Below are positions 5,722 to 27,260 of a DNA stretch of 64,000 bases, one piece after another. This DNA is from a virus, in the IMG/VR virus record IMGVR_UViG_3300037504_000888, positions 1-64,000 of that record; one strand, given 5' to 3'. The position numbers and the translations under genes were made by a program. The first letter of the stretch is position 1, and each line of letters starts with the position of its first letter. Below the pieces are notes generated by a model that ran no database searches, was not told where the DNA came from, and saw nothing but the letters and a program-made list of their open reading frames with translations.

Positions 5722-6153
5722 ATGACATACGATAGAACAACACGTCCGGCGTCCATGCAGAAGCGCCGGGAGATTCGTCAGCGTATGCTCGAGCGCGGGT
5801 GGTTTCCCGTACCCAGTGACATGCCGCGCGACGCTCTGCTACGCATTCCAGTCAAGTGGGCTCCCAACTTCGACGATGAAGACCGAGTTGATTGCAACTG
5901 GACCGAGATGTGGTGCATAGCCCTCTGGGCGAAGCTGTGTGCTTCAGGCAAGGGTACGATGAAGCGCTACGCGCTCGAGCTGAAGAGGCACAAGCAGCAG
6001 CCCAGGTTGAAACGCGCCATTTTGATTACTGCGAAGATTTCCGCGGAAAGAAACCCCGAAGCCGACCTGGCCATCACCCGGTCCATCGAGCTTCTTGACG
6101 CCCCCTGGGCCGTCACGCTACAACTTGAACGGTCCTCTGGAACTCTGAAGTAG
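5722..6153 (+). CDS. Paralogue family protein lacking the Zn finger
   Basis: WTEMWCIALW and RLKRAIL segments match the neighbouring paralogues; GGCATAAC upstream. Confidence 0.65.
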   Translation: MTYDRTTRPASMQKRREIRQRMLERGWFPVPSDMPRDALLRIPVKWAPNFDDEDRVDCNWTEMWCIALWAKLCASGKGTMKRYALELKRHKQQPRLKRAILITAKISAERNPEADLAITRSIELLDAPWAVTLQLERSSGTLK

Positions 6154-6313
6154 CACTCTTGGTGGTGAGAGCCCTTCGGGGCTGGGTGAAGGCGGCAGCC
6201 AAGGTCGCCAGGGATGGCCATCCCTAACCCTCAGACCGCAGCGCAGCGCGCCCCCTGGGCCAGACGCAGTGCGCGCGAGAAGACGAACCTGCTACAACGA
6301 GTTCCAGGGGACT
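6131..6313 (+). ncRNA. Candidate structured ncRNA, about 183 nt, family unassigned
   Basis: 15-bp closing stem 6131-6145/6299-6313 with G-U pairs, plus GTAGCA/TGCTAC; internal UUCG hairpin; TTGACG-18-TACAAC promoter immediately upstream. Confidence 0.6.
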
Positions 6314-6328
6314 CCTATAGAGGGAAGT

Positions 6329-6883
6329 ATGCAGTACGAAGCAAACATCGCCCGTGCTTTCTTCACCATGGCCTCCGTGGCGTTCATTACGGTGGTCGCC
6401 ACCAACTGCCGGTGCACCTCCGAGTGCCCCCCATGCCCCTCATGCCCGAGCGTTTCTGCTAGCCCCAACCCCTCGGTCGATCCACCGAGCACTGACCCTC
6501 CTGAAGCCGAGGTGCTGAAGCAGCTCCCCGAGCAGGACCTCCAGCTCCGCAGCATGTTCGGCACGAGTGCCGAGCTCCTGTCGAAGAAGAACGCCGAGAA
6601 CTGGACGCTGCCGTACCCCCACCAGGTTCGGATCTTCCGCGAGGACAACTCGTGGATTGAGGACTGTGGTTTCTTCCCCACCCTCCAAGGGGATGGGTGG
6701 CGAACCGCGTACTGCCTCATCGAGGACAACCAGCGCGTGGCGCACAAGCTCTACATCCGAGTGCGGAAGAGTAGCAGGGGCGAGCCCATCTACGACTTCA
6801 AAGTAGTGGGCCCCGAAGGCGCACGACTGGACACCAGCTTCGTCGAGCATGGGCAAGAAACTTCCGCGGGCGGAATGCCCTAA
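6329..6883 (+). CDS. Secreted or membrane-anchored protein
   Basis: N-terminal hydrophobic segment followed by a Cys/Pro-rich linker. Confidence 0.65.
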   Translation: MQYEANIARAFFTMASVAFITVVATNCRCTSECPPCPSCPSVSASPNPSVDPPSTDPPEAEVLKQLPEQDLQLRSMFGTSAELLSKKNAENWTLPYPHQVRIFREDNSWIEDCGFFPTLQGDGWRTAYCLIEDNQRVAHKLYIRVRKSSRGEPIYDFKVVGPEGARLDTSFVEHGQETSAGGMP

Positions 6884-7349
6884 GTGTGGTCTGATCGTCA
6901 TCGAGCGACGTATGGACGAGCACATCAACAATGGTTGGTGTGTCAGCCGCCAGAACCTGCATCAGATACGCAAGCTCGGCTACGACGTGCCTAGCCACTA
7001 CGGGTCGAGCATCCGAACCGTGCAGATGCTAGCCAGGTACGCCGGCATCAAACTAGAACGTGAGCCTGTGGACGCCCTCGACTATGGCAGAAACTTTACG
7101 GCTTGGGCCAAGAGGAAGACCGAACAGGGTCGCCCCATCGACCAGCGCTACGTGGTCAAGGACCTCTACGTGGCCCCCACGTGGCTCATCAAGCTCGCCG
7201 CGGCTTGGCGCCACCGCCGCGCCCGCGCACTCAATGGCAAGCCTGCGCCGTTCCCCAAGAAGGTCCTGGTCAAGCTGCCAGAGGCCGTCGACAATGAGCG
7301 TCTACAGCAGGCGCTGATAACCTCGTTGACTCTGAGGAGTAGGAAATGA
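6849..7349 (+). CDS. C2HC Zn-finger paralogue family protein
   Basis: CPKC..H..C; YVAPTWLIKL; RLQQALI. Confidence 0.7.
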   Translation: MGKKLPRAECPKCGLIVIERRMDEHINNGWCVSRQNLHQIRKLGYDVPSHYGSSIRTVQMLARYAGIKLEREPVDALDYGRNFTAWAKRKTEQGRPIDQRYVVKDLYVAPTWLIKLAAAWRHRRARALNGKPAPFPKKVLVKLPEAVDNERLQQALITSLTLRSRK

Positions 7350-7933
7350 AGACGGATTTGTCTGACTGGCTCGACGAGAAACGCAGTTTCTTGGTCTTCG
7401 TCCCTGACATCGAGATGAAGGAGGCGATGAAGAATGAACCCTACGTACTGCGCATTCACCTTCCTAGGATCTACTCGTTCCTCGAGGTCGTGCAGATTGA
7501 GAACCCGCTCGTTGGCATCAGCGCCCTGGGCATGGGTCCGCAGACGGCCTACGCGTTCTTGGTCGATCCCACCACCGAAGTGAATAGGCGCTTCTACATC
7601 ACCGCCATATTCCCGCACATGCACTTTCCTTGGGGTGACACGCGCGTGCGCTGCTCGCCTCGGGGCATCAGCACGCACAGCGGTGTGGCGCTGCTGCACG
7701 TCGAGACGAACGTTGAGCACGACGACTACGACTGGTTCGAGCGCAACATCCAGGAGATGGGCTACCGCCTCGTCGACGCCAAGCCCTACACTCAGAGCGC
7801 TGAGCTCGTGAACCTCTACAAGGCCAACCTGGAGGAGCTGCGTGGCAAGGTGGAAGAGCAAGTTCGACCACCGGGACCCGGTGTGGGTCAGCCGAGTGGC
7901 GAAGGCCCTGAAGGGTCAGATGAACCAGCGTGA
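7346..7933 (+). CDS. Hypothetical protein
   Basis: ATGA coupling; codon usage typical of the genome. Confidence 0.7.
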   Translation: MKTDLSDWLDEKRSFLVFVPDIEMKEAMKNEPYVLRIHLPRIYSFLEVVQIENPLVGISALGMGPQTAYAFLVDPTTEVNRRFYITAIFPHMHFPWGDTRVRCSPRGISTHSGVALLHVETNVEHDDYDWFERNIQEMGYRLVDAKPYTQSAELVNLYKANLEELRGKVEEQVRPPGPGVGQPSGEGPEGSDEPA

Positions 7934-8162
7934 GCTCTACGAGGCCGAGCGCCTCACCGAAGAGTGGAAGAAGCAGTACGTCGACGACGACCGCGGGATG
8001 AAAGCGCTCGAGGTCGTCGACATGATGCGGCGGGGGCGCAGTGAGCCCCTGCCGGTGGACCACGTGACGCTTCACATCGGTGTGGACCATGCTGTAGTTT
8101 CAGAAAGTTCGACGGCCACCATAGCCGTCCCTCGAAAGGGCAACGATGCATCGGAATCATGA
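7920..8162 (+). CDS. Hypothetical protein
   Basis: Start MNQREL; operon context. Confidence 0.55.
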   Translation: MNQRELYEAERLTEEWKKQYVDDDRGMKALEVVDMMRRGRSEPLPVDHVTLHIGVDHAVVSESSTATIAVPRKGNDASES

Positions 8163-8436
8163 TCCCCAGCTTTGGATGGAGTCTGTCCCCAGGACCCCCA
8201 CAGCTACCCCTGAGAAGCCCCCGACCACCCTTTGGGACCCGGGGGCTTTGCTTTGTGCCGTGGTCGACGGCAGGCGCGTCTACGGCAAGGTCGCGTGTGT
8301 TGACCCGCACGTCGACTACGTGGTGGTTCGCTCCTACAACTTCAACGGGCACGAGCCCGTCAAGAGCACCTGGGCGGGTACCAGGGACCAGTTCCAGGCG
8401 ATGTGGATGTTCGCACGCCTCGAAGGCGCCGCTTGA
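8146..8436 (+). CDS. Hypothetical protein
   Basis: Operon context; codon usage. Confidence 0.55.
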   Translation: MHRNHDPQLWMESVPRTPTATPEKPPTTLWDPGALLCAVVDGRRVYGKVACVDPHVDYVVVRSYNFNGHEPVKSTWAGTRDQFQAMWMFARLEGAA

Positions 8437-8461
8437 CGGCGCCTGCGTCCTGAGCGACGCT
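8433..8461 (+). promoter_or_regulatory. Sigma70-like promoter upstream of the tmRNA
   Basis: TTGACG-17-GACGCT; similar promoters at 6095, 11101 and 27155. Confidence 0.5.
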
Positions 8462-8521
8462 TCTATCAGGTCGGCGGCCTCGTGCCTTAATGGAGAACTG
8501 GCTCCTGCCGGCCGTACTTAC

Positions 8522-8888
8522 GGGCCTGACTGGTTTCGACGTGGAGGAATGGAAGTAGCTGCGAGCAGGCGGGGCTCACGCCGCCTTGACCCATGTGAGC
8601 AAACGGCAGTTGCCAACGACAACGCCAACCAGGCCGCGGCGTAAGACCCGCGACCCACCCCTAGCGAGGAGCTCGAGTAGCGACGGGGTGCCAGTACACG
8701 AGCTGAGCCTGCGCGGCGTGTCTCCGATGATGCAGGCGAGCTTACGGAGAGGCTGACTTCTCGGAAAGACGGGATGGTGGAGGCGGCACACCCCCAGTCG
8801 CCAATGACGCCGGGAAAGACCGGCTACGCTCGTGAACGAAGCTACTGACTGAACTCTGCGGACCGGAGTTCGATTCTCCGCAGGTCCA
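8522..8888 (+). ncRNA. ssrA: Transfer-messenger RNA (tmRNA)
   Basis: 5' GGGCCTGACTGGTTTCGAC; 3' T-arm CGGAG-TTCGATT-CTCCG then CAGGTCC-A-CC; G3-U70 alanine identity pair; tag ORF 8612-8644 ANDNANQAAA*. Confidence 0.96.
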
Positions 8889-8890
8889 CC

Positions 8891-9280
8891 TCTACTTTCT
8901 CAGCTCCCCCGTTGTCACATTCGGGGCAGGAAAAGTTGGACTGAGCATGCTGAGCTCTGCGAAGTCCCCTGGTCACGGGAGGTTGCAACGCCCGCGCGAC
9001 TCGGTGCGTGGTATCCGTGTCACCGTCCTTCTCGGTCTCTCGGATGCTCGAGCAGGCCCTGGGTGAAAACCGAGGGCACCACTCGAGTAGCCCGGTCTTC
9101 TGGGATGGGCGGAAGTCGCGTCTGAACGTCTCAGCCTCGGGCGGCAAGGCCCGGGGCGAGTAGGTAACCCTGAGAGAGGCTTGCCCCTCTTGATGGGAGC
9201 GAAGTTCGAGTCCTCGCCGTTCAGGCCGAAGCAGAGGCGGGGAACGTCCCGCCATCAAGGCCCTCGCCTCTGCTTCTACA
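8891..9280 (+). ncRNA. Candidate large structured RNA with a tRNA-like domain and two pseudoknots, family unassigned
   Basis: Nested helices, GAAA tetraloop, acceptor-like stem with TTCGAGT T-loop, kissing loops GGCAAG/CTTGCC, pairing CTTGATGG/CCATCAAG, 15-bp terminal hairpin. Confidence 0.65.
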
Positions 9281-9561
9281 TCCTCGGCGAGACCGACCAC
9301 AACGTCGGCCTCGACCAACTCCAGGCGTTCACGGACGCCTGGCTCGGGTACTACGGCCAGTCCGACGAAGAAGAAGTAGAGTCGGTGCGACGACACCTCC
9401 AGGACCTACTTGCCCGAGCCCACCGCGATGGCGGTGGCGAGATCGCTCCCCTAGAAGAAGAAGCTGGGGGAGATACTGCACCACCTGGGACTGATAGTAG
9501 TAGGACCACCCCTACTACCCGGACGGATGGTGACAGTGCCTTCGCCTCTGCTTCTACTTAG
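9193..9561 (+). CDS. Hypothetical protein whose start lies inside the structured RNA
   Basis: The part after about 9275 has typical codon usage and looks helical; in-frame starts are TTG 9181/9190 and ATG 9193. Confidence 0.4.
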   Translation: MGAKFESSPFRPKQRRGTSRHQGPRLCFYILGETDHNVGLDQLQAFTDAWLGYYGQSDEEEVESVRRHLQDLLARAHRDGGGEIAPLEEEAGGDTAPPGTDSSRTTPTTRTDGDSAFASAST

Positions 9562-9570
9562 CTCCAGATT

Positions 9571-10221
9571 TCAGGGGTTACTGGCTACACGGGCGTCGGT
9601 GGTGAAGACCTTGCGCATCTTAGCCTCGTAGAAGAGGGCTCGAGGCTTGGCGCCCTTCCAGGCGGGGTTGCGTGTGCCCGCGTAGCACATGAAGAGCTTC
9701 TTCGGTGCGGGCGAGTAGCAACGACTCAACTTGATGGCCGCTGCATGCGTGGCGTACCAGGTGGATGTGGCATCTGTGCCATCCATGACGTTCCAGTGCC
9801 TTCGGATGCCGCGATCGTACTGCATCTGGAAGATGGTGCGGGCAGCGAAGTAGCGACGAGTGATCTTTCCCGTCTTCGGGTTGCGTATGATGACTTCGTC
9901 GCACTCGCCTCGCGCCCAAACACCGGGCTCCTTCTGGTAGCCGGGGCGGCACTTGCCCTCATGGATGTGTTTGGCGAATCGGCTCTCCCAGAAGCCAGCT
10001 GTGACTAGGGCAATGGCTAGTGATTCACGAGAACCACGCCAGCGGGGCGTGCAGTCCTTTGTGTCGTACTTGCCTGAGCAGGTGAAGCGTGCGCTGACGT
10101 CAGCATTTGCTTCGGCGATTGTCGTCAACCGGTCTGTTCGCTCTTCGAGCGTCTCTTGGTCGGTGTAATAGGCAGGAAGAGAAAGAAGAAGGGCGAGGAT
10201 GGTTGCGATGAACTGTTCCAT
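9571..10221 (-). CDS. Secreted protein, putative lysozyme/transglycosylase-like hydrolase
   Basis: Signal peptide MEQFIATILALLLSLPA; WESRF motif and later FQMQ resemble lytic transglycosylase motifs. Confidence 0.5.
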   Translation of the reverse strand: MEQFIATILALLLSLPAYYTDQETLEERTDRLTTIAEANADVSARFTCSGKYDTKDCTPRWRGSRESLAIALVTAGFWESRFAKHIHEGKCRPGYQKEPGVWARGECDEVIIRNPKTGKITRRYFAARTIFQMQYDRGIRRHWNVMDGTDATSTWYATHAAAIKLSRCYSPAPKKLFMCYAGTRNPAWKGAKPRALFYEAKMRKVFTTDARVASNP

Positions 10222-10344
10222 GACGGCCTTGTAACATGAAGGTCGTCGGACCACGCAAGATCTACTTGTTGAACGGTGGTCCGACAGGTTGTACAACTGC
10301 TTCACCGCCCGAGAACAACGTACCGGGCGAGAAGGAGAGATAAG

Positions 10345-11094
10345 ATGAACCACGGGTACAAGTACGGTATCCCCTACGGGGGTCAAGGCGACGAAAGCCG
10401 ACTGCAGCGAGCCTTCGATGCACACCAGGCTCAACACGAGTTCCGCCCGGGAGAAGGTCCGGAAGCAGAGAGGTTGCTCGAGCCCACCGTTCTGTATCGC
10501 TTGACGCTCAGCAACGGTGTGCTGGTCGAGCTTCTTCACCGCCGGCTCAAAGGCACTGACGACTCCGGCACCCTCGGCCTTCGCCTCACTCCTGAGGGTG
10601 ATGAGACAGGGGAGGTGAACCTTGAAGGCCTGGATCTTGAAGCGTTTCTTCTCATCGTCGACAAGCTGAAACCGTCATACATACATCCTGCAGAGAGACG
10701 CATCCGTACCAAGTCGGTCAAGACGCTCAAGAAGCATGAGGACCTAGGTCGGTCGAACAAGGACCTAGGCAAGGCCATGGCCCACGCGTTCGTGAATGAG
10801 GTGAGCAAGCTCAAAACGCCAGCCGACGTGAACATGGTGCCCATCGCCAGCGAAGAGGAGCACATGTCGGAGTATAGTCTGCGCTCGTGCGTCGGGGTGT
10901 CGAAAGCCGTCACCATTGACGGTGAGCGTTGGGTTGTGGACAAGGTTGCAAACAAGCTGAAGCTCACGCGTTTCGATACTACTGCAGACGCGGACCCCGA
11001 GACTGTGGTGATCGACGAGAAGGCGCTGCTGGCTGACGAGCCACTCGTCAACGTGGTGCGCCGTCACATCGCCGAGGCACGAAAGGCGAGTTGA
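10345..11094 (+). CDS. Hypothetical protein
   Basis: AAGGAG RBS before MNHGYK. Confidence 0.7.
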   Translation: MNHGYKYGIPYGGQGDESRLQRAFDAHQAQHEFRPGEGPEAERLLEPTVLYRLTLSNGVLVELLHRRLKGTDDSGTLGLRLTPEGDETGEVNLEGLDLEAFLLIVDKLKPSYIHPAERRIRTKSVKTLKKHEDLGRSNKDLGKAMAHAFVNEVSKLKTPADVNMVPIASEEEHMSEYSLRSCVGVSKAVTIDGERWVVDKVANKLKLTRFDTTADADPETVVIDEKALLADEPLVNVVRRHIAEARKAS

Positions 11095-11134
11095 CGGAGC
11101 TTGACAGTGTGGGCGGATGGGCTCATCCTTCCCC

Positions 11135-11425
11135 TTGAGGTCCAGCCGCTTGTACGGCGGTGAGGGTAAGTTGCTGCAGAGCAGCCGCCTCAACCTCTTC
11201 TGCACGGGTCGTCGGCGCTCCCCTCCGCTGGCGGCCCGTAGCTTTTATGGGGCTAGGAAAAGACGGCGCGCTACAATGGAGCACGCCGCAACGAAGAAGA
11301 GACGCGTCAGGCCCAGGAGGGGCTCCCCACTTGCTGAACCGCCCAAGGGTTTCAGCGTCTTCACCTTGGTCGCCGCGTGGTGGGGAGCCACACCTGGGTG
11401 CGGCCTACTCTTCATCTTCGCCCAG
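11135..11425 (+). ncRNA. Candidate structured ncRNA, about 290 nt, family unassigned
   Basis: TTGACA-17-CATCCT promoter at 11101-11129; lies between convergent genes; several hairpins with G-U pairs and a long 3' rod. Confidence 0.55.
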
Positions 11426-11428
11426 CAC

Positions 11429-12589
11429 TTACAGGTTCTCTGCGGCGAGCTTGCCGAGGATGACGACCTCGCCGCGCTCGTCGCTGGCGATGTCTACTTG
11501 GGCAAGACGTAGGGTCCGCAATTCTTCGTTGTCCAAGAGCACCTTCACCTCCATCTTCTTGTACGGTTTGGAGTAGCCCAGGTGATTGGCGTTACTCAGG
11601 TCGACACCCAGAGCAGTTGCAGCGCGCTCGAGTGAGACCTTTGGGGCCGTGCCGAACATGGCCGATAGCCGCTTCTTGAGCTCCGGGGCGTGCTTTGAGT
11701 CGTACAGAGCGGCCTTGATGTCCGGGGGCGTCCAGCCCTCGGGCTTGAGCACCTTCCCGTCCTCTCGGTACGTTACCTTTCCATCGGGGCCTACCTTGGC
11801 CATGTTCGAGCGGTGAACCTCATCCCACAGGCGGTCGAGGGGCATGCCGAGCTCGAGGCCCATGCCTACGGTGACGACCATCAGGTCGGTGAGTGCGTCA
11901 GCGGTCTCGATGGCGTTGTAGTCGTAGTTGTCACGCCATTTGTCCAGCACCGTGTCGATGTTCCCTTTGGCGGCCTCCACGAGGTGCTGAGGACCGTTTC
12001 CGACGGCACCCTTGAGCAGCTCGAAGAACTCCTCAGCGACGAGACGAAGACGCAACATCAGTCGCTCTTGCATCTCTCGCTTGGAGCTGAGATTCACGTC
12101 GTCGTCGACCAGGTCGTTGATGTCGTCGGGCGGTACGGGCTCCTCCAGAACAGGGTGCCCGAACGCAAGATGAAGCTGCTCCATGTCCCGCATCAGATGT
12201 TCCATTCGTCGTTCTCCAGGCAGGGGTTCTCGAGATGCTCGATGTTGAACTCCTTCTTCCTTCCGTTCCAAGTACTTAAGTGAGTCACGAGCGTCGACTC
12301 GGTCGAGCAGCGACTGCAGGTCATTCAGCACGCTCGGTATCTCGTCGCGAACGCCGGCGTACTCCTCAATCAGCGCTTCGACGCCTGAACGCAACTTCTC
12401 GGCTTCCTTCCCAGCTTCGGGGTCGTTGTCCTGTACGTACTCGTCCGCCTGTTCGAGCGCGTTCGCGCACTCTTCCAACGTCAGAGCCTCTGCGATGTCC
12501 CCCGGTTCATGCTTGCCAGTAACCGGGTTTCGCTTGCTCATCTGCTCTGCCTCTGCTCGCCACTTGGCCACGAGTTCGTGTAATTTCAT
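11429..12589 (-). CDS. MazG-like / phosphoribosyl-ATP pyrophosphohydrolase family nucleotide pyrophosphatase
   Basis: RLRLVAEEFFEL, DALTDLMVV, WDEVHRSNMAK, REDGKVLKPEGW. Confidence 0.88.
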   Translation of the reverse strand: MKLHELVAKWRAEAEQMSKRNPVTGKHEPGDIAEALTLEECANALEQADEYVQDNDPEAGKEAEKLRSGVEALIEEYAGVRDEIPSVLNDLQSLLDRVDARDSLKYLERKEEGVQHRASREPLPGERRMEHLMRDMEQLHLAFGHPVLEEPVPPDDINDLVDDDVNLSSKREMQERLMLRLRLVAEEFFELLKGAVGNGPQHLVEAAKGNIDTVLDKWRDNYDYNAIETADALTDLMVVTVGMGLELGMPLDRLWDEVHRSNMAKVGPDGKVTYREDGKVLKPEGWTPPDIKAALYDSKHAPELKKRLSAMFGTAPKVSLERAATALGVDLSNANHLGYSKPYKKMEVKVLLDNEELRTLRLAQVDIASDERGEVVILGKLAAENL

Positions 12590-13101
12590 TCCTCTTCCTC
12601 TGGCTTCACGGGCACCTCTTTGGTGTCGATGCCGTTGTGCCAGTAGCAGTGCAAGTACTTGCGCGCCCAGGCGCCAAGTACGGCGTGCAGCGCTTCTTCA
12701 GCCTGCTTCTCGGTGTAGTCCTTGTTGACGCTGAAGATGGAGTCGTTGCTGGTGTTCGCACATTGGTCGATGACGTAGTCCTCCATGCGTTCGAGCACGT
12801 CTTCTAGGCCCAGTGCGTCACAGAGCGTAGCGTCCGGGAGAACTTCTTCAGCCTCCATGACGCCGAAGGTCTCCATCTCCTCACCGTAGGGCGGGTCCTC
12901 GGAGTATTCAGACCGACCCTCCACGATGGCCTCCTCCTCGGTGTCGAAGGGTCCGCCGGGCCATTCCTCCTCGTCCCGGGTCGGGGCGTAGAACCACTTC
13001 CTCGTATTCCCCGGACGCTCCGGGGGCGCGTCGTTGATGTAGTCTTGAGCCCTCAACGTCTTAGGGCTCAATTCCTCACTAGGTATGATTCGCGTCTTCA
13101 C
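12586..13101 (-). CDS. Acidic hypothetical protein
   Basis: GGPFDTEEEAI motif; ATGA coupling. Confidence 0.65.
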   Translation of the reverse strand: MKTRIIPSEELSPKTLRAQDYINDAPPERPGNTRKWFYAPTRDEEEWPGGPFDTEEEAIVEGRSEYSEDPPYGEEMETFGVMEAEEVLPDATLCDALGLEDVLERMEDYVIDQCANTSNDSIFSVNKDYTEKQAEEALHAVLGAWARKYLHCYWHNGIDTKEVPVKPEEEE

Positions 13102-15062: not shown

Positions 15063-15066
15063 GGCG

Positions 15067-17021: not shown

Positions 17022-18148
17022 GTCCCTGGCTCCCTGATGGCGACGCCAACGGGGTGAAATGGCACCCCGTCCGGCGTGTAGTTGAAGTAGCGAACGGTGA
17101 GCATCTTTCCGACGCTCTCGTTGGCAGTGCGGAGCATCTCGAGGCGCTCGGCCTCGTTGCCCATTGGCGTGACCTCGAAGGTGCGCTCTCCGCAGACACA
17201 CTCGAAGATGGGGACGTTGGCGAACTTCCCCTTGCCCGTCTTCCAGCCCACGATGAGGAACTCGTCGTCCTGGAACGCCTTGTACTTCAGCAGGTCTGAG
17301 CTGCGGTAGCCGAACTTGTAGACGCCGCCGAGGCTGCGGTAGATGGCGCCCTCGTAGCCCTCAGCGACGAAGTCGTTATGAAACTGCTCGAGTTCGATGT
17401 GCTCGTTGACCACGTGCGTCTCGACCAGCGATATCGACCGCAGCTCCCTGAAGTGGAACAAGGAGCTGGTGAAGAAGTGCTGGAGCGTCTCGAAGCGCTT
17501 GCTCCACGGCATCTCCGGTTCGTCTTCCATGTAGACGTCGTAGACGTGGTACTCGACGTTGATCGACGCCTCCTGCGGGCGCCGGACCCAGGAGCTGATG
17601 GTCTGGAGCGCGGTGCCATGGTGGTAGAGCTCGCCGTCGAGGATGTACCCCGGCGGGAGAGCCAGTCGCAGCTCTCCTTGGATGTGATGAACGACGTAGG
17701 GGTCGCCACCACGGGACAGCAGGTGTGCTTGGCCATCCTTCAGGAAGGCGAGGCAGCGCACGCCGTCCAGCTTCGGTTGGACGTGGGCAGGGTAGGTGGG
17801 CGCCTTCTTCTGCTTCTTGTAGTCCTTCGCAAGCATCGGCTTGAGGTTGCGATTCTCCTCCCAGTGGTTCGGGTCAACGTGGTACTTCTTCTTGACCTGC
17901 TTCTTCCACTTGCTGATGGCTTCCTTGATGGCCTGCTCGGAGTCGCTCGTCTCGTTGGAACGACCCTTGTTCTTGCCCTCGCACTCGAAGGCGGCGTGCT
18001 GCAGCTGCCCGCCGACCTGCCCCCACTCGACGTGGACCTGAGAGCCCTCGGCCCAGCAGGTCCACTGAGTGATGGCGCCAGTGACCGACTTGGCGTAGAG
18101 GGTCGGCATCTTGTCTAGCCCGTTGTAGCTGTCTGGGTCGTAGTTCAC
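17018..18148 (-). CDS. ATP-dependent DNA ligase
   Basis: Motif I QPKLDGVRC; LDGELY; YHVYDV; EGAIYR; LLKYK; C-terminal OB domain. Confidence 0.95.
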   Translation of the reverse strand: MNYDPDSYNGLDKMPTLYAKSVTGAITQWTCWAEGSQVHVEWGQVGGQLQHAAFECEGKNKGRSNETSDSEQAIKEAISKWKKQVKKKYHVDPNHWEENRNLKPMLAKDYKKQKKAPTYPAHVQPKLDGVRCLAFLKDGQAHLLSRGGDPYVVHHIQGELRLALPPGYILDGELYHHGTALQTISSWVRRPQEASINVEYHVYDVYMEDEPEMPWSKRFETLQHFFTSSLFHFRELRSISLVETHVVNEHIELEQFHNDFVAEGYEGAIYRSLGGVYKFGYRSSDLLKYKAFQDDEFLIVGWKTGKGKFANVPIFECVCGERTFEVTPMGNEAERLEMLRTANESVGKMLTVRYFNYTPDGVPFHPVGVAIREPGT

Positions 18149-19408: not shown

Positions 19409-19703
19409 CCTCGCCTCCCCTTGCCAGCGCTTCCCGCAACCGCGCATTTTCGGCCGCAACCCGATGGGTCCCCTCAAAACGCTTTTGCAGCCGCGCCAAC
19501 TCTTCAGCTTGCCACTTTCGTTTGGCGCCGTTGGCTGCCGCCTCGTTCTTGAGGCGGACGATTGCGACCCGCGCCTCGTCAAGCTCACGCTCCAGCTCGG
19601 CAACGCGGTCGGCAAGCTCTTCAACGTCCACTTCGTCTCGAAGGGTGGCGCGAATATTCTCGCTCAGCTTGCGGTCAGTAATCGCTTGTCTCTTCGACTT
19701 CAT
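19401..19703 (-). CDS. Coiled-coil hypothetical protein
   Basis: ATGA coupling. Confidence 0.6.
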   Translation of the reverse strand: MKSKRQAITDRKLSENIRATLRDEVDVEELADRVAELERELDEARVAIVRLKNEAAANGAKRKWQAEELARLQKRFEGTHRVAAENARLREALARGGEDD

Positions 19704-20173: not shown

Positions 20174-20547
20174 ACCCTCATTGCGAAGTAGAGCTTCTCG
20201 CCTGTGAGCAACTCCTTGATGCCATCGACGAGCGCGTCTTCCCACTTGCCGTAGGGCTCATCAGGGTCTCTGAGCTTCACCAGATTGAACGGCTCCCCGA
20301 CCGTCGGCTCCTTGATGTCGCACAGGTAGCGCTTGGGGCTGAACGTGTCCAGTTTGATGTAGAGCTCGGCTGTGACGTGCCTGATGACGGGCTCGACGAG
20401 CTCGTCGGGCACGGGGGTGTTGTGACTCATGAGCTCGTCCATGGTGGCCTGAACGTGCTCCTTGTCCCACCAGACGTCGACCAGGTTGGCAACCCGGTCG
20501 ACCCTGATGAGATTCTTTCGGTTCTTGCGCTTCTCCTTAGACATCAC
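20170..20547 (-). CDS. Hypothetical protein
   Basis: AAGGAG RBS; GTGA coupling. Confidence 0.6.
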   Translation of the reverse strand: MMSKEKRKNRKNLIRVDRVANLVDVWWDKEHVQATMDELMSHNTPVPDELVEPVIRHVTAELYIKLDTFSPKRYLCDIKEPTVGEPFNLVKLRDPDEPYGKWEDALVDGIKELLTGEKLYFAMRV

Positions 20548-20747
20548 TTCTCCTTGAGCGGGTGCACAGAGCGCCGCAGCTCTCGTACTCGCTGATACCA
20601 GCGTTGGCACTCCTCAATTTCCTCGCTCACCATGTCGTGGCAGTCATTGTCGAGCCGCGATTCCATCTCAATCTCCAGCTCGGTCAGTGCTTGAAACGCG
20701 TCCCTCAAACGAGGGGGCCTGCCTCGGCCCTGCTTGGGGTCAGCCAT
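20544..20747 (-). CDS. Hypothetical protein
   Basis: TGATG coupling. Confidence 0.55.
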   Translation of the reverse strand: MADPKQGRGRPPRLRDAFQALTELEIEMESRLDNDCHDMVSEEIEECQRWYQRVRELRRSVHPLKEK

Positions 20748-21340
20748 CAGTCTTCGCCCCAAATGAATGAAATGGCGTCCTCCCAGTTCATCTCTTCTAC
20801 GCCGTGCTTTTCAACTATCCTCTTGAGCTTCTTGAACACGCCGAACACCTTCTTCTGGTACTTGACCAGCTCAGGCTTGAACACCTTCGCGAGGGTTTCA
20901 TCACGAGAGCAAGCGGAGCCGTCACCCACGACAACGCTCACCCCAATCTCGGAGGGGTTCTCTGCCTCGGCAGTATCGTGATCCCAAAAGATGAGCACAG
21001 GCAGTTTCACGGTCTTGCTCATCTTCAGGACCTTGAGCTCTTTCTGAAGACCAGCCTTTCTGACTGCGTTCACGAACGCATTGAGCTTTTTCTCTTCCTC
21101 CTTCCGAGCCTGCGCTTCCTCCTCCCGCATGAAGTTGCGGACAGTCCGCCCCAGCTCGTCCAGCTCCGAGTAGGGCAGCTTGGCTACTTGCTTCTTGATG
21201 CCCTCTAGGTTACTCATGGTCTTGCGCTCCTGTTCAGCGATGACGCGGTCGGCGGCGCAGCGTTTGTTGAGCTTTTCGATATGCCGTTCCAACTCGGCAA
21301 CGCGGTCCTTTAGGGCTTCGATGGTGGTGTTGTCACTCAC
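20747..21340 (-). CDS. Hypothetical protein
   Basis: Coupled ORF with coiled-coil N-terminus. Confidence 0.65.
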   Translation of the reverse strand: MSDNTTIEALKDRVAELERHIEKLNKRCAADRVIAEQERKTMSNLEGIKKQVAKLPYSELDELGRTVRNFMREEEAQARKEEEKKLNAFVNAVRKAGLQKELKVLKMSKTVKLPVLIFWDHDTAEAENPSEIGVSVVVGDGSACSRDETLAKVFKPELVKYQKKVFGVFKKLKRIVEKHGVEEMNWEDAISFIWGED

Positions 21341-21621
21341 GGCTTATTCCTCGCTCGTTCTTCTTCTGTGAGCTCTTCGTCGGGCAGTACGTACTCGGCG
21401 GGCACGCCCAACCCCTTGACGACGTCCCGGCGGAACTTCGTTGGCGGAGACATAGCGAAGAGTACCTTCTGAACGTACTTCAAAAACTCCTCGCCCAACC
21501 TCTTCTCGACGAGGAACCTGCCAAAGATGAGAGATTGAGAAGAGGGCCCGAAGCCCTCTTTGTCCATGAGGGTGGACGCCTCTCGAACCTTACTCCTCTC
21601 TTGCTCCTCGACGTTCTTCAC
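21337..21621 (-). CDS. Hypothetical protein
   Basis: GTGA coupling; GGAG RBS. Confidence 0.6.
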   Translation of the reverse strand: MKNVEEQERSKVREASTLMDKEGFGPSSQSLIFGRFLVEKRLGEEFLKYVQKVLFAMSPPTKFRRDVVKGLGVPAEYVLPDEELTEEERARNKP

Positions 21622-21860
21622 TTCTTCTCCTCCTCAACGCCCCTAACACCGTGGTTGATGTCGTACTCGGCCTTCGCAGCACTGGGCAGGTGATGGGCAA
21701 GCTCGCCCAAGTCCTCCTTCTCCCCGTGTATGAGGGTAATGGTGGTGAGACAGCGCCCGTCGTCCAACCGCTGCTCGTTGAATCGCCACAACCCTGTGGG
21801 GGCCTCGAGGGTCAGCGTCTTGGAATTAGGGTTCTCGGGGGTCTCAAACGTCAGTTTCAT
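21618..21860 (-). CDS. Hypothetical protein
   Basis: GGAGGAG RBS. Confidence 0.6.
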   Translation of the reverse strand: MKLTFETPENPNSKTLTLEAPTGLWRFNEQRLDDGRCLTTITLIHGEKEDLGELAHHLPSAAKAEYDINHGVRGVEEEKK

Positions 21861-22161
21861 CTTTCTCCTCCGGTTCTAGTAGGTTCCACACCTGCCCATC
21901 GTTGGTGATGAACTGTGCGCCCCAGATGTGCCCGTAGCTCTCGCTGCGGTACAGGTGGGGTCCTTCGTGCCCTGCGGGCTTCTGGCACTGCAGCTTGTCG
22001 TCCCATAGAGCAGGGCACTGAGCAGGCGGCGCATGGCCAGGCTTCGGATACCCTTCATGAGGCGTTGTGAGGCTCATGCCGTGCTTCTCTCGGAAGCACT
22101 CGCCTTCACCACATTCATGGTGACAGGCGCCGCCATCGTGAGGGCACCGCCGGTCACTCAT
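21844..22161 (-). CDS. Cys/His-rich hypothetical protein
   Basis: CPHDGGACHHEC; C..C..GHEGPH. Confidence 0.6.
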   Translation of the reverse strand: MSDRRCPHDGGACHHECGEGECFREKHGMSLTTPHEGYPKPGHAPPAQCPALWDDKLQCQKPAGHEGPHLYRSESYGHIWGAQFITNDGQVWNLLEPEEKDETDV

Positions 22162-22343
22162 GTCTTCTCCTCCTCGAACTGCTGCGGGGGCACGAGCTTT
22201 CGCTCCATGCTCTTCTCCCGTTGCCGCTGGTGGTAGTCCAGCATCGCCTTGTTCACCTCCTCGGCGCACAGCGGGCAGTACGACTTTCCCTCATGCACGA
22301 CGGTGAAGTCCTGCTCGCCGTGCTTGCTGCAGGTGGTTTTCAT
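22158..22343 (-). CDS. Small Zn-ribbon protein
   Basis: CSKH..CPLC; ATGA overlaps. Confidence 0.6.
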   Translation of the reverse strand: MKTTCSKHGEQDFTVVHEGKSYCPLCAEEVNKAMLDYHQRQREKSMERKLVPPQQFEEEKT

Positions 22344-22504
22344 CGCTTCTCCTTCGGCGCGTACGCGCCTTTCATGTTGAGGAAGTCGCAGTGCTCTTTC
22401 CAGCACTGCGGGTGGAAGAAGTGGAGGAGGTTGGCAGCATCCCTGCTGCGCCTCATCTCCTCCTCTTCCCCCTTCTTGCCACACCAGGTGCATTCACGCT
22501 TCAT
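22340..22504 (-). CDS. Small Zn-binding protein
   Basis: CTWC..HPQC; ATGA overlaps. Confidence 0.55.
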   Translation of the reverse strand: MKRECTWCGKKGEEEEMRRSRDAANLLHFFHPQCWKEHCDFLNMKGAYAPKEKR

Positions 22505-22737
22505 AGCTTGCACCAAACCCACCCAGCGAACTCACCTTCTTTGAAGACCGGCGCCACCTGCGGGGTCCCACGCTTGGATGCACCTCCGAGCCGTTGCAAC
22601 AGACGGTCTACGTCCATCTGCAGGTTTTCAGGCATCACTACGTGGTGCTTGTACAGCTTTAGCAGCGCCTCCTTCTCGTCGTCGTCCAGGGCGTTGAGTC
22701 GCCGAACCAGTTCTTCGCCAAACTCGTCGTTGGTCAT
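22501..22737 (-). CDS. Hypothetical protein
   Basis: AAGGAG RBS; coupled. Confidence 0.55.
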   Translation of the reverse strand: MTNDEFGEELVRRLNALDDDEKEALLKLYKHHVVMPENLQMDVDRLLQRLGGASKRGTPQVAPVFKEGEFAGWVWCKL

Positions 22738-23030
22738 GGCTTCTCCTTCTTGTATTGGTAAGGCACGTTGAGGAACTTGGCTTCAGGCACAGGCGTACCG
22801 TCTACCCAGGTGATTTGATGAGGCTCGAGCACATCCTCATGCCCCATCTGGAAGATGTACCGGCTCATCTTGTTCCTGTGTTCTTCCTCGGTCGAGCAAC
22901 AGGTCCAGACGCCGCAATTGGGGCACAGGTATTAGTGGTTGAACTCCTGCACCCCGACGCCGATATCCACCGACTCGCAGTCGAACAACGGCGAGGGCTT
23001 GCCGCAGCGGAGGCACTTCGGGTCACTCAT
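22734..23030 (-). pseudogene. Zn-ribbon gene interrupted by an in-frame TAA
   Basis: MSDPKCLRC...VDIGVGVQEFNH*YLCPNCG...; ATGA-coupled at both ends; TAA at 22932-22934. Confidence 0.7.
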
Positions 23031-24262
23031 CCAGTACCCCCAATGCCAGCACCCTCAATCTTGGCGAGCAATTCATCTATGATGTTTGCCGGGAAGAGTC
23101 CTCCGACCATCGACTTGAGTTGGGTGCGTAGGTCACGCACTACCTGTAGCTTCTCCTGTAGCAAGTCCACTGCGACCTTCTCGGCGTTCCGCGCCCTTGC
23201 GAGGTCCACGTGAAGCCACTTCACGTTCTCCCTGGAGCCTTCGAGCTGCTTCACCAACCAAGCAACACGCTGATCCAGCATTCCATCTTCGGCGTCGTCG
23301 CCAGCTCCTGCCTCCGTTAGGATCTTGTTTGAAGCGTCAACGACCTGCTGCAATGCCTGAAACTTATCCAGTGCATCATCCAGCTCAGACTGTCTTTTCG
23401 TGATCTGGTACTGCGTCTCACACTGGTGTGCGAAGAGGCGATCACTCTCCTTCTTCAGCTTCTCATGCGCATGCTCCAGGGACTGCTTTAGCGAGTTCTC
23501 TGTCGACTTAGCGCGCACAAGCTCCCTCTTTGCAGTCTGCCAATCCGCACCGAGCTGCCGAATCTCCTCCACCAGAGTACCGGACCGAACGGTCCAACTA
23601 GGCAGCGCCTTGTACGCCTCGGACAGCAGCGCCTCGGCGTCGTTCAACCGCTTGTTTGCGTCGTCAAGCTGGCGTTGAAGTTCGAGCACGTCTCGGGGTG
23701 GGCAGTTGTACTGAGCGTCCTTCTCTGCCTCATCGAGATTCACGCTCTGCGTTTCCGTTGCCTGTTCTTCAATCTGTGTGGCAACGGCTCTCCACCCCCC
23801 GCTATCTGGCGGGTTGTCCTTGCTCTCCCCCTTCTCGGACGTCATGTCAGTGGGACTGGGCGGCATGGGTTGTTTCCCCGCAAGCGCTTCTTCGAGCGCC
23901 TTCGCAATTTCATTGTCGCGGTCGCTCCCGTTGCCGAGCTTGATGTCGCAAAGGTCGCTCTTTAGCTGCCCAATGGCCTGCACCAACCGGTCCCGGTCGG
24001 CGGCTGCGTTCTCCGCGTTGAGCTTCCAGAGAGAATGGTGCGCAGTACGGAAATGCACGTAGTCGCTGTTGTTACACAACTCGTGGCAGTCATCAGGTGC
24101 CCCCGCCCCCTCCTCGTGCTGCTCATTGAGGTAGCGCGTGATGGCCTCCACGCGCGTAGAGTCTAGGTTCTTGTAGTTGTGCAGCTCCCCGAGCGGGGCG
24201 TCGCCCAGATGCTCCATGGCAATCTCCCTAGAGAGTTGCTCGATTCGTTCACTTGGTTTCAC
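23027..24262 (-). CDS. Long coiled-coil hypothetical protein
   Basis: Heptad-rich 411-aa ORF; GTGA coupling. Confidence 0.7.
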   Translation of the reverse strand: MKPSERIEQLSREIAMEHLGDAPLGELHNYKNLDSTRVEAITRYLNEQHEEGAGAPDDCHELCNNSDYVHFRTAHHSLWKLNAENAAADRDRLVQAIGQLKSDLCDIKLGNGSDRDNEIAKALEEALAGKQPMPPSPTDMTSEKGESKDNPPDSGGWRAVATQIEEQATETQSVNLDEAEKDAQYNCPPRDVLELQRQLDDANKRLNDAEALLSEAYKALPSWTVRSGTLVEEIRQLGADWQTAKRELVRAKSTENSLKQSLEHAHEKLKKESDRLFAHQCETQYQITKRQSELDDALDKFQALQQVVDASNKILTEAGAGDDAEDGMLDQRVAWLVKQLEGSRENVKWLHVDLARARNAEKVAVDLLQEKLQVVRDLRTQLKSMVGGLFPANIIDELLAKIEGAGIGGTG

Positions 24263-24591
24263 CTGTCTTTTTCCCTCCCCATCGTGGAGTGGAAGTACAG
24301 CAGGGCGCCCTCGTCGTCGTAGACGCCAGCGATATAGCCAAAGTCGTTGTCTCGAACGCCACAGATGCCGTTCAGGATGCCTAGAAGCCCTACGCCCTCG
24401 TCGGTTGCCTGAATAGTCGGGTGACGCTCTGCCAGCTCACCATCGACGGGAATACGTCGCTCGCACAGTGCGTGAAGAAGCTCCCTGACTCTTCCATCCA
24501 GGAAGTCGTGTTCAATCAGTTCGTTGAGGCGTAGCACCAGCTCCTGTGCCAGCTCTTGGTCCTTGATTCGTTCACTTGGCTTCTTTGCCAT
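24259..24591 (-). CDS. Hypothetical protein
   Basis: HPTIQ...VGLLGILNG motif. Confidence 0.7.
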   Translation of the reverse strand: MAKKPSERIKDQELAQELVLRLNELIEHDFLDGRVRELLHALCERRIPVDGELAERHPTIQATDEGVGLLGILNGICGVRDNDFGYIAGVYDDEGALLYFHSTMGREKDR

Positions 24592-24884
24592 CAGCCCTCC
24601 TCTTCTGACTTGCTGTCATCACGAAGCTGGTTGAGCGTCTTGAGGCCCATCATCCAGAGCACACCCTGGATAAAGCCGAGCCACCTCATGGCTTTCTCTA
24701 TACGACCCTCGGCAACGAAGTCAGCGGCCTGCTCGCACATCCACGCCAGGTGGAGTTGCACGTCAAACGGGTTAATGTTTTGCACGTAAGGTAGGTCGTA
24801 CTGTTCGCCTTCCAGTTTTTTTGCAGGGCACCGCCACAGTCTCCGGTATCCAGATAGAACGCTCACTAGTTTCTCAGGTGTCAT
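24591..24884 (-). CDS. Hypothetical protein
   Basis: HLAWMC..KAMRWLGFIQGVL, a motif typical of small phage proteins. Confidence 0.7.
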   Translation of the reverse strand: MTPEKLVSVLSGYRRLWRCPAKKLEGEQYDLPYVQNINPFDVQLHLAWMCEQAADFVAEGRIEKAMRWLGFIQGVLWMMGLKTLNQLRDDSKSEEEG

Positions 24885-25659
24885 TACGCTGTCTCTTTCT
24901 CATGACGAGCTCGAAGTGCATGCCGTCAGGGCGGTTCCAGTGGCCACCCCACCAGAAGCCGAAGTCGTTGGCGCTTTGGACGAGTGGAATGACAGTGCCA
25001 TGATCGTCACTGGGGGCTGGGTGCCGACCTAGACCATTACATTCAGCATTGATGTCGAAGGCTGTGCCCCAAGCATGAGAGCTGAGGACGCCAGGTGCTC
25101 GCCGCACGTAGCGGGGCACCCAGGAGCCTGCCCAGCTCTTGACGTAGTGCATCAGGTCATTGTCCTCCCAGTACTGGAAGAGTGCCTTCATCGGCTCGAC
25201 GGCGAGCTTGTTGACGAAGATATTCCTGCTGTAGGGCGCCCCAACAATACCTACGAGTTGAGGAATGTGCACCCTGGACAGATATTCCCTCTGCCAGTTG
25301 TTCGTGATCCGTATGGCCTCGGGATTGTTGCGCGTAGGAGCCGCTTTGGACTCAATGCGGCCGAACCTCTTGTGCTTCTGAGCTACGCTCAGTGGTTTGA
25401 AGTCAGGCTTATCTGGGGTCACCCAGCGAGAGCCGGCGATGGCGAGGTCTTGAGCCATGGCGGCACCCCAGAGCGCGTCGTCTACGATGCCATCTTGCGG
25501 CAATCGTTGTATGGCCTCGTACTCCTTCGTGGCGTTGTGTGTTTTCGGGCCGTAGTCGCAATCGATGCGCCCCTTGTACAAGCCCTCTCCGTGCAGGAAC
25601 TCCTGCCATAGACCGACAAGCGGGCCCTTGTCGCCCCTCTTCAGAATGGTCAGCTGCAT
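24874..25659 (-). CDS. Peptidoglycan-binding domain plus M15-family peptidase (endolysin-like)
   Basis: LKRGDKG..DCDYGPKT; SSHAWGTAFDIN; WGGHW..DGMHFE. Confidence 0.92.
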   Translation of the reverse strand: MQLTILKRGDKGPLVGLWQEFLHGEGLYKGRIDCDYGPKTHNATKEYEAIQRLPQDGIVDDALWGAAMAQDLAIAGSRWVTPDKPDFKPLSVAQKHKRFGRIESKAAPTRNNPEAIRITNNWQREYLSRVHIPQLVGIVGAPYSRNIFVNKLAVEPMKALFQYWEDNDLMHYVKSWAGSWVPRYVRRAPGVLSSHAWGTAFDINAECNGLGRHPAPSDDHGTVIPLVQSANDFGFWWGGHWNRPDGMHFELVMRKRQRNDT

Positions 25660-25726
25660 GCTCTTCTCCTTGTGCTAGTTCCAGGGAACCACTGCTGTTA
25701 TGCCCGCTATAGTGTAGACTTTCGTC

Positions 25727-26062
25727 GTGGCCTCGAAAGAGCAGAAAGCGCAAGAGCGGCAGCAGCAACGCGACAACATCAAGCTGCGGGAAGCACTGAA
25801 CAAGAGCTACGCCGTACTTGAGGCTGAGAAGTACACCCAGACGGCTTTGGCCTTCACCTTCGAGGAGGCCGTCACCCAACAGCTACAGCGCCTCGAGCAA
25901 TCTGGCTCTCGCATCCGCCCCTCGCCTCTAGAGCGAGTGGAGAAGATCGAGAAAGAGCTGCTACAAGCAGTGGAGACCATCACCGCCATCCCACCCGAGG
26001 AGTTCATCAGACAGATTCGGGGGCGGGACGTGAACACTGAGGAAGACGATGAATCTAAGTGA
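25727..26062 (+). CDS. Hypothetical protein
   Basis: Leaderless promoter geometry upstream; helical. Confidence 0.65.
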   Translation: MASKEQKAQERQQQRDNIKLREALNKSYAVLEAEKYTQTALAFTFEEAVTQQLQRLEQSGSRIRPSPLERVEKIEKELLQAVETITAIPPEEFIRQIRGRDVNTEEDDESK

Positions 26063-27158
26063 CATTCGTTGGGGCAGCTACAAGAACTTCGAGGGCCCGT
26101 GGACGCTGGGCGAAGTGCCTTACGAGCTGCCGATCACCCCGACTGACGAAGACAAGGTCATGGCGGTCATCACCGCCACCGAGGGCGGCAAGTACGACGT
26201 CGTCAACATGTACGACGTCTGCTTGTGGACGTGTTCGTTCATTCAGTGGTGCAACCGGGCTCCGCAGCACTCCGTTGACGACCTGCTGACGCACATCCTG
26301 CTCGAGAAGGGCGCTTCTTACTGCGAACCGCTCTTTTCCCTGGCCTCGACCCGCGGCTACATCTTCCGGGTCATCGATGGCAAGGGACGGTTCTACCGAC
26401 AGCAGAACAACGTCCAGGTCGCTACTCCCGAGCTGCAGCAGGACCTCTACTTTGGGGGCTCCACCGGCTACAAGGGACAGTGGCACGAGACGGATAAGTC
26501 GTGGGCCAAGTTGTGGTGTCTAGCTTCAGCTCAGACCTTCGGGGGAACCGAACAGGCTCGAGAGGCCGCGGTGACGTTTACGGCCCCCAAGGTCGTCAAG
26601 TTCTTCGCCTACGGCGCGGGTCGTACTCTGCTCGAGGAGATGCCCCCGAGCTCGGTGGGGCACGCCTGGCGGGCGCTCTACCTCAGCTTTGCGGCCAACA
26701 ACCCCGCCAAGGCCGCCTCGGCCGTGAAGAACGCTCAGAGCTACCTCGGGCTCGAACCATGGACCGAGGTCTGGCTCATCAACCAGGCGCACCATCTGAC
26801 CTTCGACTCTGGCATCAGCATCTACCCACACCGCTACAACAAGATTCGGCCTGTCATCGAAAATCTCTGGGGTGTGGACCTGCCCGATGTATCGGAAGAG
26901 TTGAGGAAGTGGCAGCCGGGCTTCTCCGAGCGTTGGTTTGACCCTGCGGAGGTTCAGCGCGCTCTCAAGGCCCTGGGTTACGACCTGGGTCCCCGCGGCA
27001 TTGACGGGGACTTTGGACGTAAGAGCAAAGCGGCCCTGCAGGAGTTCGAGAGGGACGCCGGTGTCCCTCCAGAGTGCCAAGATGGAATGCCGGACCGGTT
27101 CACTCTGCCCGAGCTTGAGAAGGCGCTGGAGGCGAAAGGACTGAAAGAACTTTCTTGA
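26049..27158 (+). CDS. Putative peptidoglycan hydrolase (lysozyme-like N-terminus, C-terminal PG-binding domain)
   Basis: TEGGKYDVVNMYD..FIQW; VQRALKALGY..IDGDFG..ALQEF. Confidence 0.8.
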   Translation: MNLSDIRWGSYKNFEGPWTLGEVPYELPITPTDEDKVMAVITATEGGKYDVVNMYDVCLWTCSFIQWCNRAPQHSVDDLLTHILLEKGASYCEPLFSLASTRGYIFRVIDGKGRFYRQQNNVQVATPELQQDLYFGGSTGYKGQWHETDKSWAKLWCLASAQTFGGTEQAREAAVTFTAPKVVKFFAYGAGRTLLEEMPPSSVGHAWRALYLSFAANNPAKAASAVKNAQSYLGLEPWTEVWLINQAHHLTFDSGISIYPHRYNKIRPVIENLWGVDLPDVSEELRKWQPGFSERWFDPAEVQRALKALGYDLGPRGIDGDFGRKSKAALQEFERDAGVPPECQDGMPDRFTLPELEKALEAKGLKELS

Positions 27159-27189
27159 CGGGGCGCTGTAGCTGCCGTAGCGTCATCTC

Positions 27190-27260
27190 GCTGTCTTCAT
27201 GTTGTCCACCCCGGACGCCCCGAAGGCCCGCCTGATTGCCCACAGGCGGGCCTTCTCTTT
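27190..27260 (+). ncRNA. Candidate small RNA, about 70 nt
   Basis: TTGACG-17-TAGCGT promoter at 27155-27183, then a short unstructured segment and an intrinsic terminator. Confidence 0.45.
27222..27260 (+). terminator. Rho-independent terminator
   Basis: 13-bp perfect stem GAAGGCCCGCCTG/CAGGCGGGCCTTC followed by TCTTT. Confidence 0.8.

Follow-up and report, generated by a model that had tools for sequence, protein, structure and literature searches.

The locus examined here raises the question of whether a phage that encodes a transfer-messenger RNA (tmRNA) also makes other small RNAs, and whether it does so from promoters of one kind. The stretch analysed, hereafter the window, comprises the first 64 kb of the 103-kb IMG/VR virus record IMGVR_UViG_3300037504_000888. 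A sequence-only reading of it had described four TTGAC-type promoters, at 6095, 8433, 11101 and 27155 (sites A to D), each standing at a gene end and followed by structured non-coding DNA, and had proposed a co-regulated set of RNAs made by host polymerase for an early takeover of translation or transcription. All four motifs lie at exactly these coordinates and at gene ends, and a codon-usage model trained on long open reading frames (ORFs) agrees that the sequence downstream of them is non-coding (6154-6328, 8437-~9570, 11095-11428 and 27159-27283). Our results support a distinct promoter class, TTGACR, 17 nt, yAnnnT, leading into RNA-only DNA at three of the four sites, and suggest that at least one, probably two, short RNA genes are present beside the tmRNA. 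The explanation we favour is that host-type TTGACR promoters drive the tmRNA and two further RNAs of ~110 and ~70 nt, whose C/U stretches pair with ribosome-binding sites (RBSs); we put the probability of this whole explanation at roughly 0.55.

The record is estimated to be ~55% complete, which implies a genome of ~180 kb, and the window has a G+C content of 59%. The 103-kb record is found at full coverage in one tidal-flat metagenome run, probably the one from which it came; the phage is an uncultured one from tidal-flat sediment. For comparison we recruited ~30 related phages of 140-190 kb by searches with a 1356-aa protein encoded next to the sites and then a 219-aa protein, and took six of them in full for local analysis. 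From ~25.7 kb rightwards the window and these relatives have a common gene order. Three of the four sites fall in the left 25 kb, a hypervariable part almost without protein homologues in the relatives, and the flanking genes of regions A to C have almost no homologues in the six full relatives. Searches with blastn of regions A, B2 (the stretch after the tmRNA), C and D against these six genomes gave no match.

Promoter and candidate RNA ahead of the virion block

Site D lies at the junction between an endolysin-like gene and the gene for the 219-aa protein, where three features follow one another:

27155-27183, plus strand: promoter D, TTGACG, 17 nt, TAGCGT; its −35 element contains the TGA stop of gene 26049-27158, whose product is peptidoglycan-binding and endolysin-like
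27190-27262, plus strand: candidate ~70-nt RNA D, with a pyrimidine-rich 5′ part, a small hairpin (loop ACCCC), a terminator hairpin at 27222-27255 and a U-run
27269-27286, plus strand: extended −10 element TGTTAGAAT, then 6 nt and the GTG start of the 219-aa gene; a leaderless promoter outside the TTGAC class

Comparison with relatives strongly supports promoter D, which is conserved by position; unit D as a whole is kept in position and build, not in sequence. We searched the 200 nt upstream of the 219-aa gene in 25 distinct family members for TTGACN, 16-18 nt, nAnnnT and found this arrangement on the sense strand in 12 of them. The controls gave 0/25 on the opposite strand, 1/25 (sense) and 0/25 (antisense) inside the gene, and 0/24 on either strand 400-600 nt upstream. 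With a thirteenth module at G004:4720, the −10 element stands at exactly 17 nt in 10 of 13 cases, and in nine the upstream ORF ends at the TGA within TTGAC, even though this ORF is not one and the same gene in all phages. All 13 promoters are followed, after 56-88 nt, by a strong hairpin with a T-run, often ending in TTTTTAGCC.

The RNA bodies of the 13 modules do not align with one another in sequence. Their 5′ parts are nevertheless pyrimidine-rich (C 35, T 27, G 24 and A 14%; 279 pyrimidines vs 173 purines) and share UUCCC, CUCC or CCUCC motifs, often in the loop of a small hairpin; the D RNA of the relative L093 carries CACCUCCUUUCU. Candidate RNA D itself has a fold z-score of −4.1. Terminator T-runs in the family (L067-L094; G004:4810) are very often followed by TAGCC or TAGCT (TTTTTAGCC), and TTTAGC is 2.6-fold enriched between genes.

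As the module directly heads a long plus-strand block (27284-54201), unit D could instead be a regulated leader of the virion operon, similar to lambda PR′-6S RNA-tR′, from which an antiterminator, or the RNA itself as in HK022 put, permits read-through into the ~27-kb late block. The build is shared with these systems, in that a promoter of host type gives a short terminated transcript and a strong terminator stands before the late block, and a conserved promoter and terminator around an RNA free to vary in sequence would be expected of such a leader. In the lambda arrangement, however, the late genes have no promoter of their own, whereas here TGnTAGAAT or TAGACT follows the D terminator, 6-7 nt upstream of the GTG or ATG, and is present in relatives whether or not they have the TTGAC promoter. 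This conserved element indicates that the operon has a separate leaderless promoter, so RNA D would be a transcription unit apart from the virion block. Furthermore, the first gene has no Shine-Dalgarno sequence to serve a leadered read-through mRNA, and the module is optional in the family, being absent in close relatives; no antiterminator is recognised in the family, although no search aimed at one was made. We therefore consider a regulated leader unlikely and prefer to view unit D as the source of a free small RNA.

The tmRNA gene and the stretch behind it

Site B precedes the one RNA gene of the window that can be assigned to a known family, in the following arrangement:

8433-8461, plus strand: promoter B, TTGACG, 17 nt, GACGCT; its −35 element contains the TGA stop of gene 8146-8436
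8462-8521, plus strand: 60-nt pre-tmRNA leader with a hairpin at 8469-8513 whose loop holds CCTTAATGG, from an alignment and consensus fold with G010 and G018 17413-17500
8522-8891, plus strand: tmRNA gene with the tag ANDNANQAAA, found with Rfam (RF00023) and ARAGORN
8892-9570, plus strand: 680 nt without a called gene, strongly structured, between the tmRNA and the converging gene 9571-10221

The tmRNA gene is real. It scores 100.6 bits on RF00023 (cut-off 47) over the full length of the model (positions 1-374), and the tag frame that ARAGORN detects, ANDNANQAAA*, has a resume codon and a stop; since the 3′ end is ACCT, the CCA is not fully encoded. Searches of 5900-11500 and 27120-27300 against Rfam at permissive thresholds returned the tmRNA as the sole family match and the 6C family below its cut-off, so that the earlier remark that only the tmRNA is recognisable holds for Rfam, where units C and D belong to no family. 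Phage-encoded tmRNAs are known from mycobacteriophage Bxz1 and from huge metagenomic phages. The present one resembles them in being a full-length, one-piece molecule with a tRNA-like domain and a tag frame, and in lying, in related phages, within a tRNA region. It differs in that its tag ends in QAAA rather than ALAA, its CCA is incomplete in the gene, tRNA genes are absent from the record, and upstream of it stand a TTGACG promoter overlapping a stop codon and a conserved, structured leader of 60 nt.

The relatives lend moderate support to promoter B. Eight family members besides the window have tmRNA matches above the Rfam cut-off. In the G010 group TTGACA, 18 nt, CATGCT stands 57 nt upstream of the tmRNA, compared with 60 nt in the window. 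Other members have TTGCAC, 18 nt, GATAGT upstream of tRNA-Thr and the tmRNA (G004), TTGCAA, 17 nt, GATAAC (G021) or TACAAT (G025); the element upstream of the tmRNA is unclear in G002 and G020, and G002 has TTGACA, 17 nt, CATCTT ~110 nt upstream of tRNA-Ile. The leader hairpin is common to the window and G010, with GCCTTAATGG or GGCTCAATGG in its loop, and G018 carries the promoter and leader together at 17413-17500. Similarity between the leaders of G010 and G018 reaches a z-score of 4.4, and that between the window and either of them only 1.3-1.9 (1.9 for G018).

The stretch behind the tmRNA is harder to interpret. It folds far more strongly than its shuffles on the plus strand (z −4.7 and −4.9, compared with −2.5 on the minus strand), and a scan for terminators found no terminator-like site after the tmRNA; co-transcription with the tmRNA is thus possible, and 8892-9570 may be a co-transcribed structured RNA. 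Nothing in it matched Rfam, or a tRNA at E values up to 5, and ARAGORN run on 8850-9700 with introns allowed and thresholds lowered returned only noise. The ORF at 9193-9561 is without a homologue and lacks a separate entry in the protein collection, and none of 50,697 phage records matched 8400-9600 in a blastn search. Seven relatives have no counterpart behind the tmRNA, the place being taken by tRNA genes, an HNH-like ORF or other ORFs. Two direct copies of a 20-nt repeat, GCCYTCGCCTCTGCTTCTAC, lie in the stretch, at 9260 and 9538.

One may postulate that this stretch and the pre-tmRNA leader are what is left of a decayed tRNA array, co-transcribed and without a function of its own. tRNA genes flank the tmRNA in relatives (Pro, Val, Thr and Met in G010; Gln and Thr in G002; Thr in G004) and the window record has none; inspection by eye further picks out a tRNA-like piece at 9122-9227 with an acceptor-like stem and a TTCGAGT T-loop, and the loops of the leader resemble D-arm sequence (GCTCAATGG). 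Against this, ARAGORN and Rfam detect no tRNA, as noted above, and the strand-specific fold suggests a structure that is being maintained. We regard such an array as very unlikely.

Several observations concern the neighbourhood. An ORF with an RBS and HNH/AP2-like sequence directly follows the tmRNA in G010 (c144600, L030), G001 and G003, with four tRNA genes beyond it, and may encode a homing endonuclease within an RNA gene cluster. Gene 9571-10221, on the minus strand, is probably the 216-aa ORF that begins at the ATG at 10221 (MEQFIATILALLLSL...), which resembles a signal peptide or membrane anchor; as TGTTACAAG stands 6 nt upstream of that ATG, the gene may be leaderless. The plus-strand gene 10276-11094 likely starts near 10345, not at 10276.

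Sites at 11101 and 6095 and the start signals of protein genes

Site C lies between two convergent genes and consists of two parts:

11101-11129, plus strand: promoter C, TTGACA, 17 nt, CATCCT; 7 nt past the stop codon of gene 10276-11094
11136-11249, plus strand: candidate ~110-nt RNA C, with a 5′ helix domain, AACCUCUUCUGCAC, a 14-bp hairpin at 11204-11239 and a U-run, found by terminator scan

The stop codon of gene 10276-11094 lies within a second TTGACG at 11091, 10 nt before the site, so that here, as at 8433 and 27155, a TGA inside TTGAC ends the upstream gene. The −10 element CATCCT fits the pattern seen elsewhere in the family (CATGCT, CATGGT and CACTCT). Candidate RNA C has a fold z-score of −2.9; its predicted 3′ end is at ~11245, and its terminator hairpin has the loop CUCCCCUC. 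The promoter has no counterpart in relatives and is a single case. The only other C-like element in the DNA examined is at G018 17482-17556, with ACCUCCUCUUGCAG, a 19-bp hairpin with the loop UAUCCCCCCUC and a U tail, and its similarity to RNA C reaches a z-score of only 2.1; with MAFFT, the C-type 3′ domains could not be aligned between the window and G018. This element forms part of a small-RNA-like unit in L101 (G018, IMGVR_UViG_3300005683_000087) at 17413-17556, where TTGGCT, 18 nt, TAGGGT is followed by a tmRNA-type leader hairpin, ACCUCCUCUU, a 19-bp hairpin with a C-rich loop and a U tail. The Rfam 6C model scores this unit at 31.5 bits against a cut-off of 47, its best value in the family.

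Protein genes had been thought to use two other promoter classes, and this is borne out by the distribution of two further signals. The 8-mer GGCATAAC occurs nine times in the 103-kb record, always between genes and 12-40 nt before an RBS and start codon, and looks like a phage-specific promoter class. The second signal, TGnTAGAAT, TAGACT or TAGGCT, stands 5-7 nt before a GTG or ATG at the heads of virion-block genes; as TGnTAGAAT or TAGACT lies ~6 nt before the start codon, the corresponding mRNAs are probably leaderless. More than 20 related phages retain the element that precedes the 219-aa gene. The most intergenic-enriched hexamer in five family genomes is TTATGC (3.2-fold). The sites are:

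60, 1054, 1441, 3138 and 25704, minus strand: GGCATAAC
5703, plus strand: GGCATAAC
G000 67185, 72319 and 82499: GGCATAAC
25715-25729, 27272-27286, 42898-42911 and 32416-32436 in the window: leaderless-type promoters
~2985-3003 in L067-L094: leaderless-type promoters

Site A appears to belong to one of these protein-gene units:

6095-6124, plus strand: promoter-like site A, TTGACG, 18 nt, TACAAC; inside gene 5722-6153 and doubtful
6131-6313, plus strand: spacer rich in hairpins, flanked by genes 5722-6153 and 6329-6883 and closed by a 15-bp stem

The site sits 56 nt inside gene 5722-6153, and its −10 element has C at the sixth position, where all 13 D-module promoters and the tmRNA promoters have T. 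Gene 5722-6153 has its own GGCATAAC signal at 5703, and the genes from 6329 onwards have none. Since the −10 element lacks the final T and the operon has its own GGCATAAC-type promoter, site A probably lies outside the TTGAC class, and 6131-6313 is probably a structured spacer within one mRNA, transcribed from the GGCATAAC at 5703. The region folds to −88.6 kcal/mol, with a z-score of only −2.5; boxes of the form CCCCTGGGCC...CTACAAC precede each arm (two matches vs none in shuffles). In G018 the syntenic gap is likewise long and rich in hairpins, and its similarity to region A (z 1.6) is not significant, nor is that of the G019 gap.

Weighing the promoter class and a role for its RNAs

The −35 hexamer, the 17-nt spacing and the A and T at the second and sixth −10 positions are the contacts of the bacterial primary sigma factor. 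A TTGACA-like hexamer, a spacing of 17 ± 1 nt and both −10 bases are present together at 8433, 11101 and 27155 and fail at 6095, and the elements with their spacing are kept in relatives at 27155 and 8433, with no counterpart of 6095 or 11101. The idea of a common TTGAC promoter over four RNAs thus stands for three sites and falls for 6095. In the window phage, the TTGACR, 17 nt, yAnnnT signal appears to lead solely into RNA-only DNA.

Taken alone, the motifs are weak evidence and within chance. TTGACR occurs 65 times in the window, its intergenic-to-genic frequency ratio in five family genomes is 0.9, and a built-in sigma-70 scan yields fewer sites than it does in shuffles. In the 103-kb record TTGACR followed by nAnnnT after 16-18 nt is found at nine sites, vs ~12 estimated from base composition; an intergenic predicted start results only at 8433, 11101 and 27155. 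The context T-TGA-CR occurs at four of 62 TGA stops, vs ~2 expected. The fourth of these gene ends, at 1087 on the minus strand (TTGACG, 16 nt, CATCCC), is followed 6 nt later by GGCATAAC, and there a TTGAC element directly precedes a promoter of the other class.

Such frequencies suit an explanation in which, apart from the tmRNA, the regions are ordinary 3′ untranslated regions with their terminators and one intercistronic spacer, and TTGAC recurs by chance through T-TGA-C stops. That A and C have no homologues, and that the genes on either side of unit C converge, with terminators placed back-to-back, would also follow from it. This explanation fails, however, to account for the spaced TTGAC and −10 elements in 12 of 25 relatives, before different upstream genes and with 0-1/25 in the controls, or for the matching promoter and leader before the G010 tmRNA, and we judge it decidedly unlikely.

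How the RNAs would act can be outlined as follows. Because the elements match the primary-sigma contacts, host RNA polymerase with the primary sigma factor is expected to start at B and D and probably at C. The tmRNA would be made with a 60-nt structured leader, to be cut off, while units C (~110 nt) and D (~70 nt) would end at intrinsic terminators and yield free small RNAs; by prediction, each is a unit of 50-150 nt bounded by its own promoter and an intrinsic terminator. Exposed C/U stretches (CCACCCC and CUCCCCUC in the window; UUCCC, CUCC and CACCUCCUUUCU in relatives) could then pair with the purine-rich RBSs of target mRNAs and lower their translation, in the manner of C-rich small RNAs of Gram-positive bacteria. 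By analogy with such RNAs, action of units C and D as free C/U-rich small RNAs on RBSs would be the best-supported function. Co-regulation, early timing and a takeover of translation or transcription, as originally proposed, are unproven.

A number of results weigh against this explanation and call for caution. TTGACR shows no enrichment between genes, as the ratio given above indicates, and the −10 elements GACGCT (8433) and CATCCT (11101) are weak. Modules of a TTGAC promoter with a terminator number 9/99 in seven genomes, against a mean of 3.6/127 for permuted cores; as ~4 of the nine are homologues of D, the modules outside D are at chance level. The D module is absent from the two closest relatives, G018 and the G010 group. 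Unit C could be chance, or the 3′ untranslated region and terminator of gene 10276-11094; the setting of convergent genes, with a second terminator adjoining back-to-back on the other strand, means that its hairpin may simply end that gene. A duplex target scan of five genomes gave no clear outlier; one match in G004 spans GGAGGA and the ATG (z −5.6), and a similar score occurs elsewhere. A search of sequencing runs with 5900-11500 returned two tidal-flat DNA runs and no RNA run, one of the two being the likely source; the contigs of both runs show no variants within the RNA regions and are uninformative. Finally, the host signal is split: a search with the tmRNA 5′ end did not discriminate between Acidimicrobiia and Myxococcota or Gammaproteobacteria, the tmRNA body being closest to Acidimicrobiia and the ANDN tag to Polyangiaceae (Myxococcota).

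A more far-reaching version would have the phage RNAs mimic the 3′ tail of 16S rRNA, soak up Shine-Dalgarno sites and damp host translation while key phage operons, whose mRNAs are leaderless, would do without such sites. It draws on CACCUCCUUUCU in one relative, CCUCC or UUCCC in others and the CUCCCCUC loop in unit C; we give it very little credence, and our preference remains with pairing at the RBSs of target mRNAs.

Two further searches bear on scope: a metagenome scan gave two short loci only, and a literature search on the finding returned nothing specific. A code in which TAG specifies an amino acid was also considered and rejected; as the gain in ORF length from such recoding does not exceed expectation and 36 long ORFs terminate in TAG, we kept the standard code.

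Among known systems, units C and D are most readily compared with C-rich small RNAs, namely RsaE/RoxS and the UCCC-motif RNAs of Staphylococcus and the actinobacterial 6C RNAs (RF01066). In common are the short length, a promoter of their own, an intrinsic terminator, and motifs rich in C and U that are looped out or unpaired; the window units differ in having one C-rich site rather than two and in being phage-borne. The 6C model gives 25.1 bits for 27200-27259, below its cut-off of 47, and no match in the D modules of relatives. Lambda OOP and P22 sar are likewise intergenic RNAs of 60-110 nt made by host polymerase and ended by an intrinsic terminator, as predicted here, but these are antisense to a neighbouring gene, whereas units C and D overlap no gene on the opposite strand. 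Phage small RNAs from host-type promoters are of a known kind, to which unit D would add a phage small-RNA family, judged from sequence comparison.

To our knowledge, virulent and very large phages are poorly charted with respect to small RNAs, and for uncultured phages hardly any such RNA has been defined. The D module offers a testable small-RNA locus whose position is conserved in about half of a family of ~180-kb phages, and the tmRNAs of this family appear to have their own host-type promoter and a conserved leader. The apparent three-way split of start signals, with TTGAC for RNA genes, GGCATAAC for many protein genes and an extended −10 of the leaderless type for the virion block, could be of use in assigning genes to the host or phage RNA polymerase and to time classes. 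If the C/U-rich RNAs do act on RBSs, they would represent a phage tool for tuning translation.

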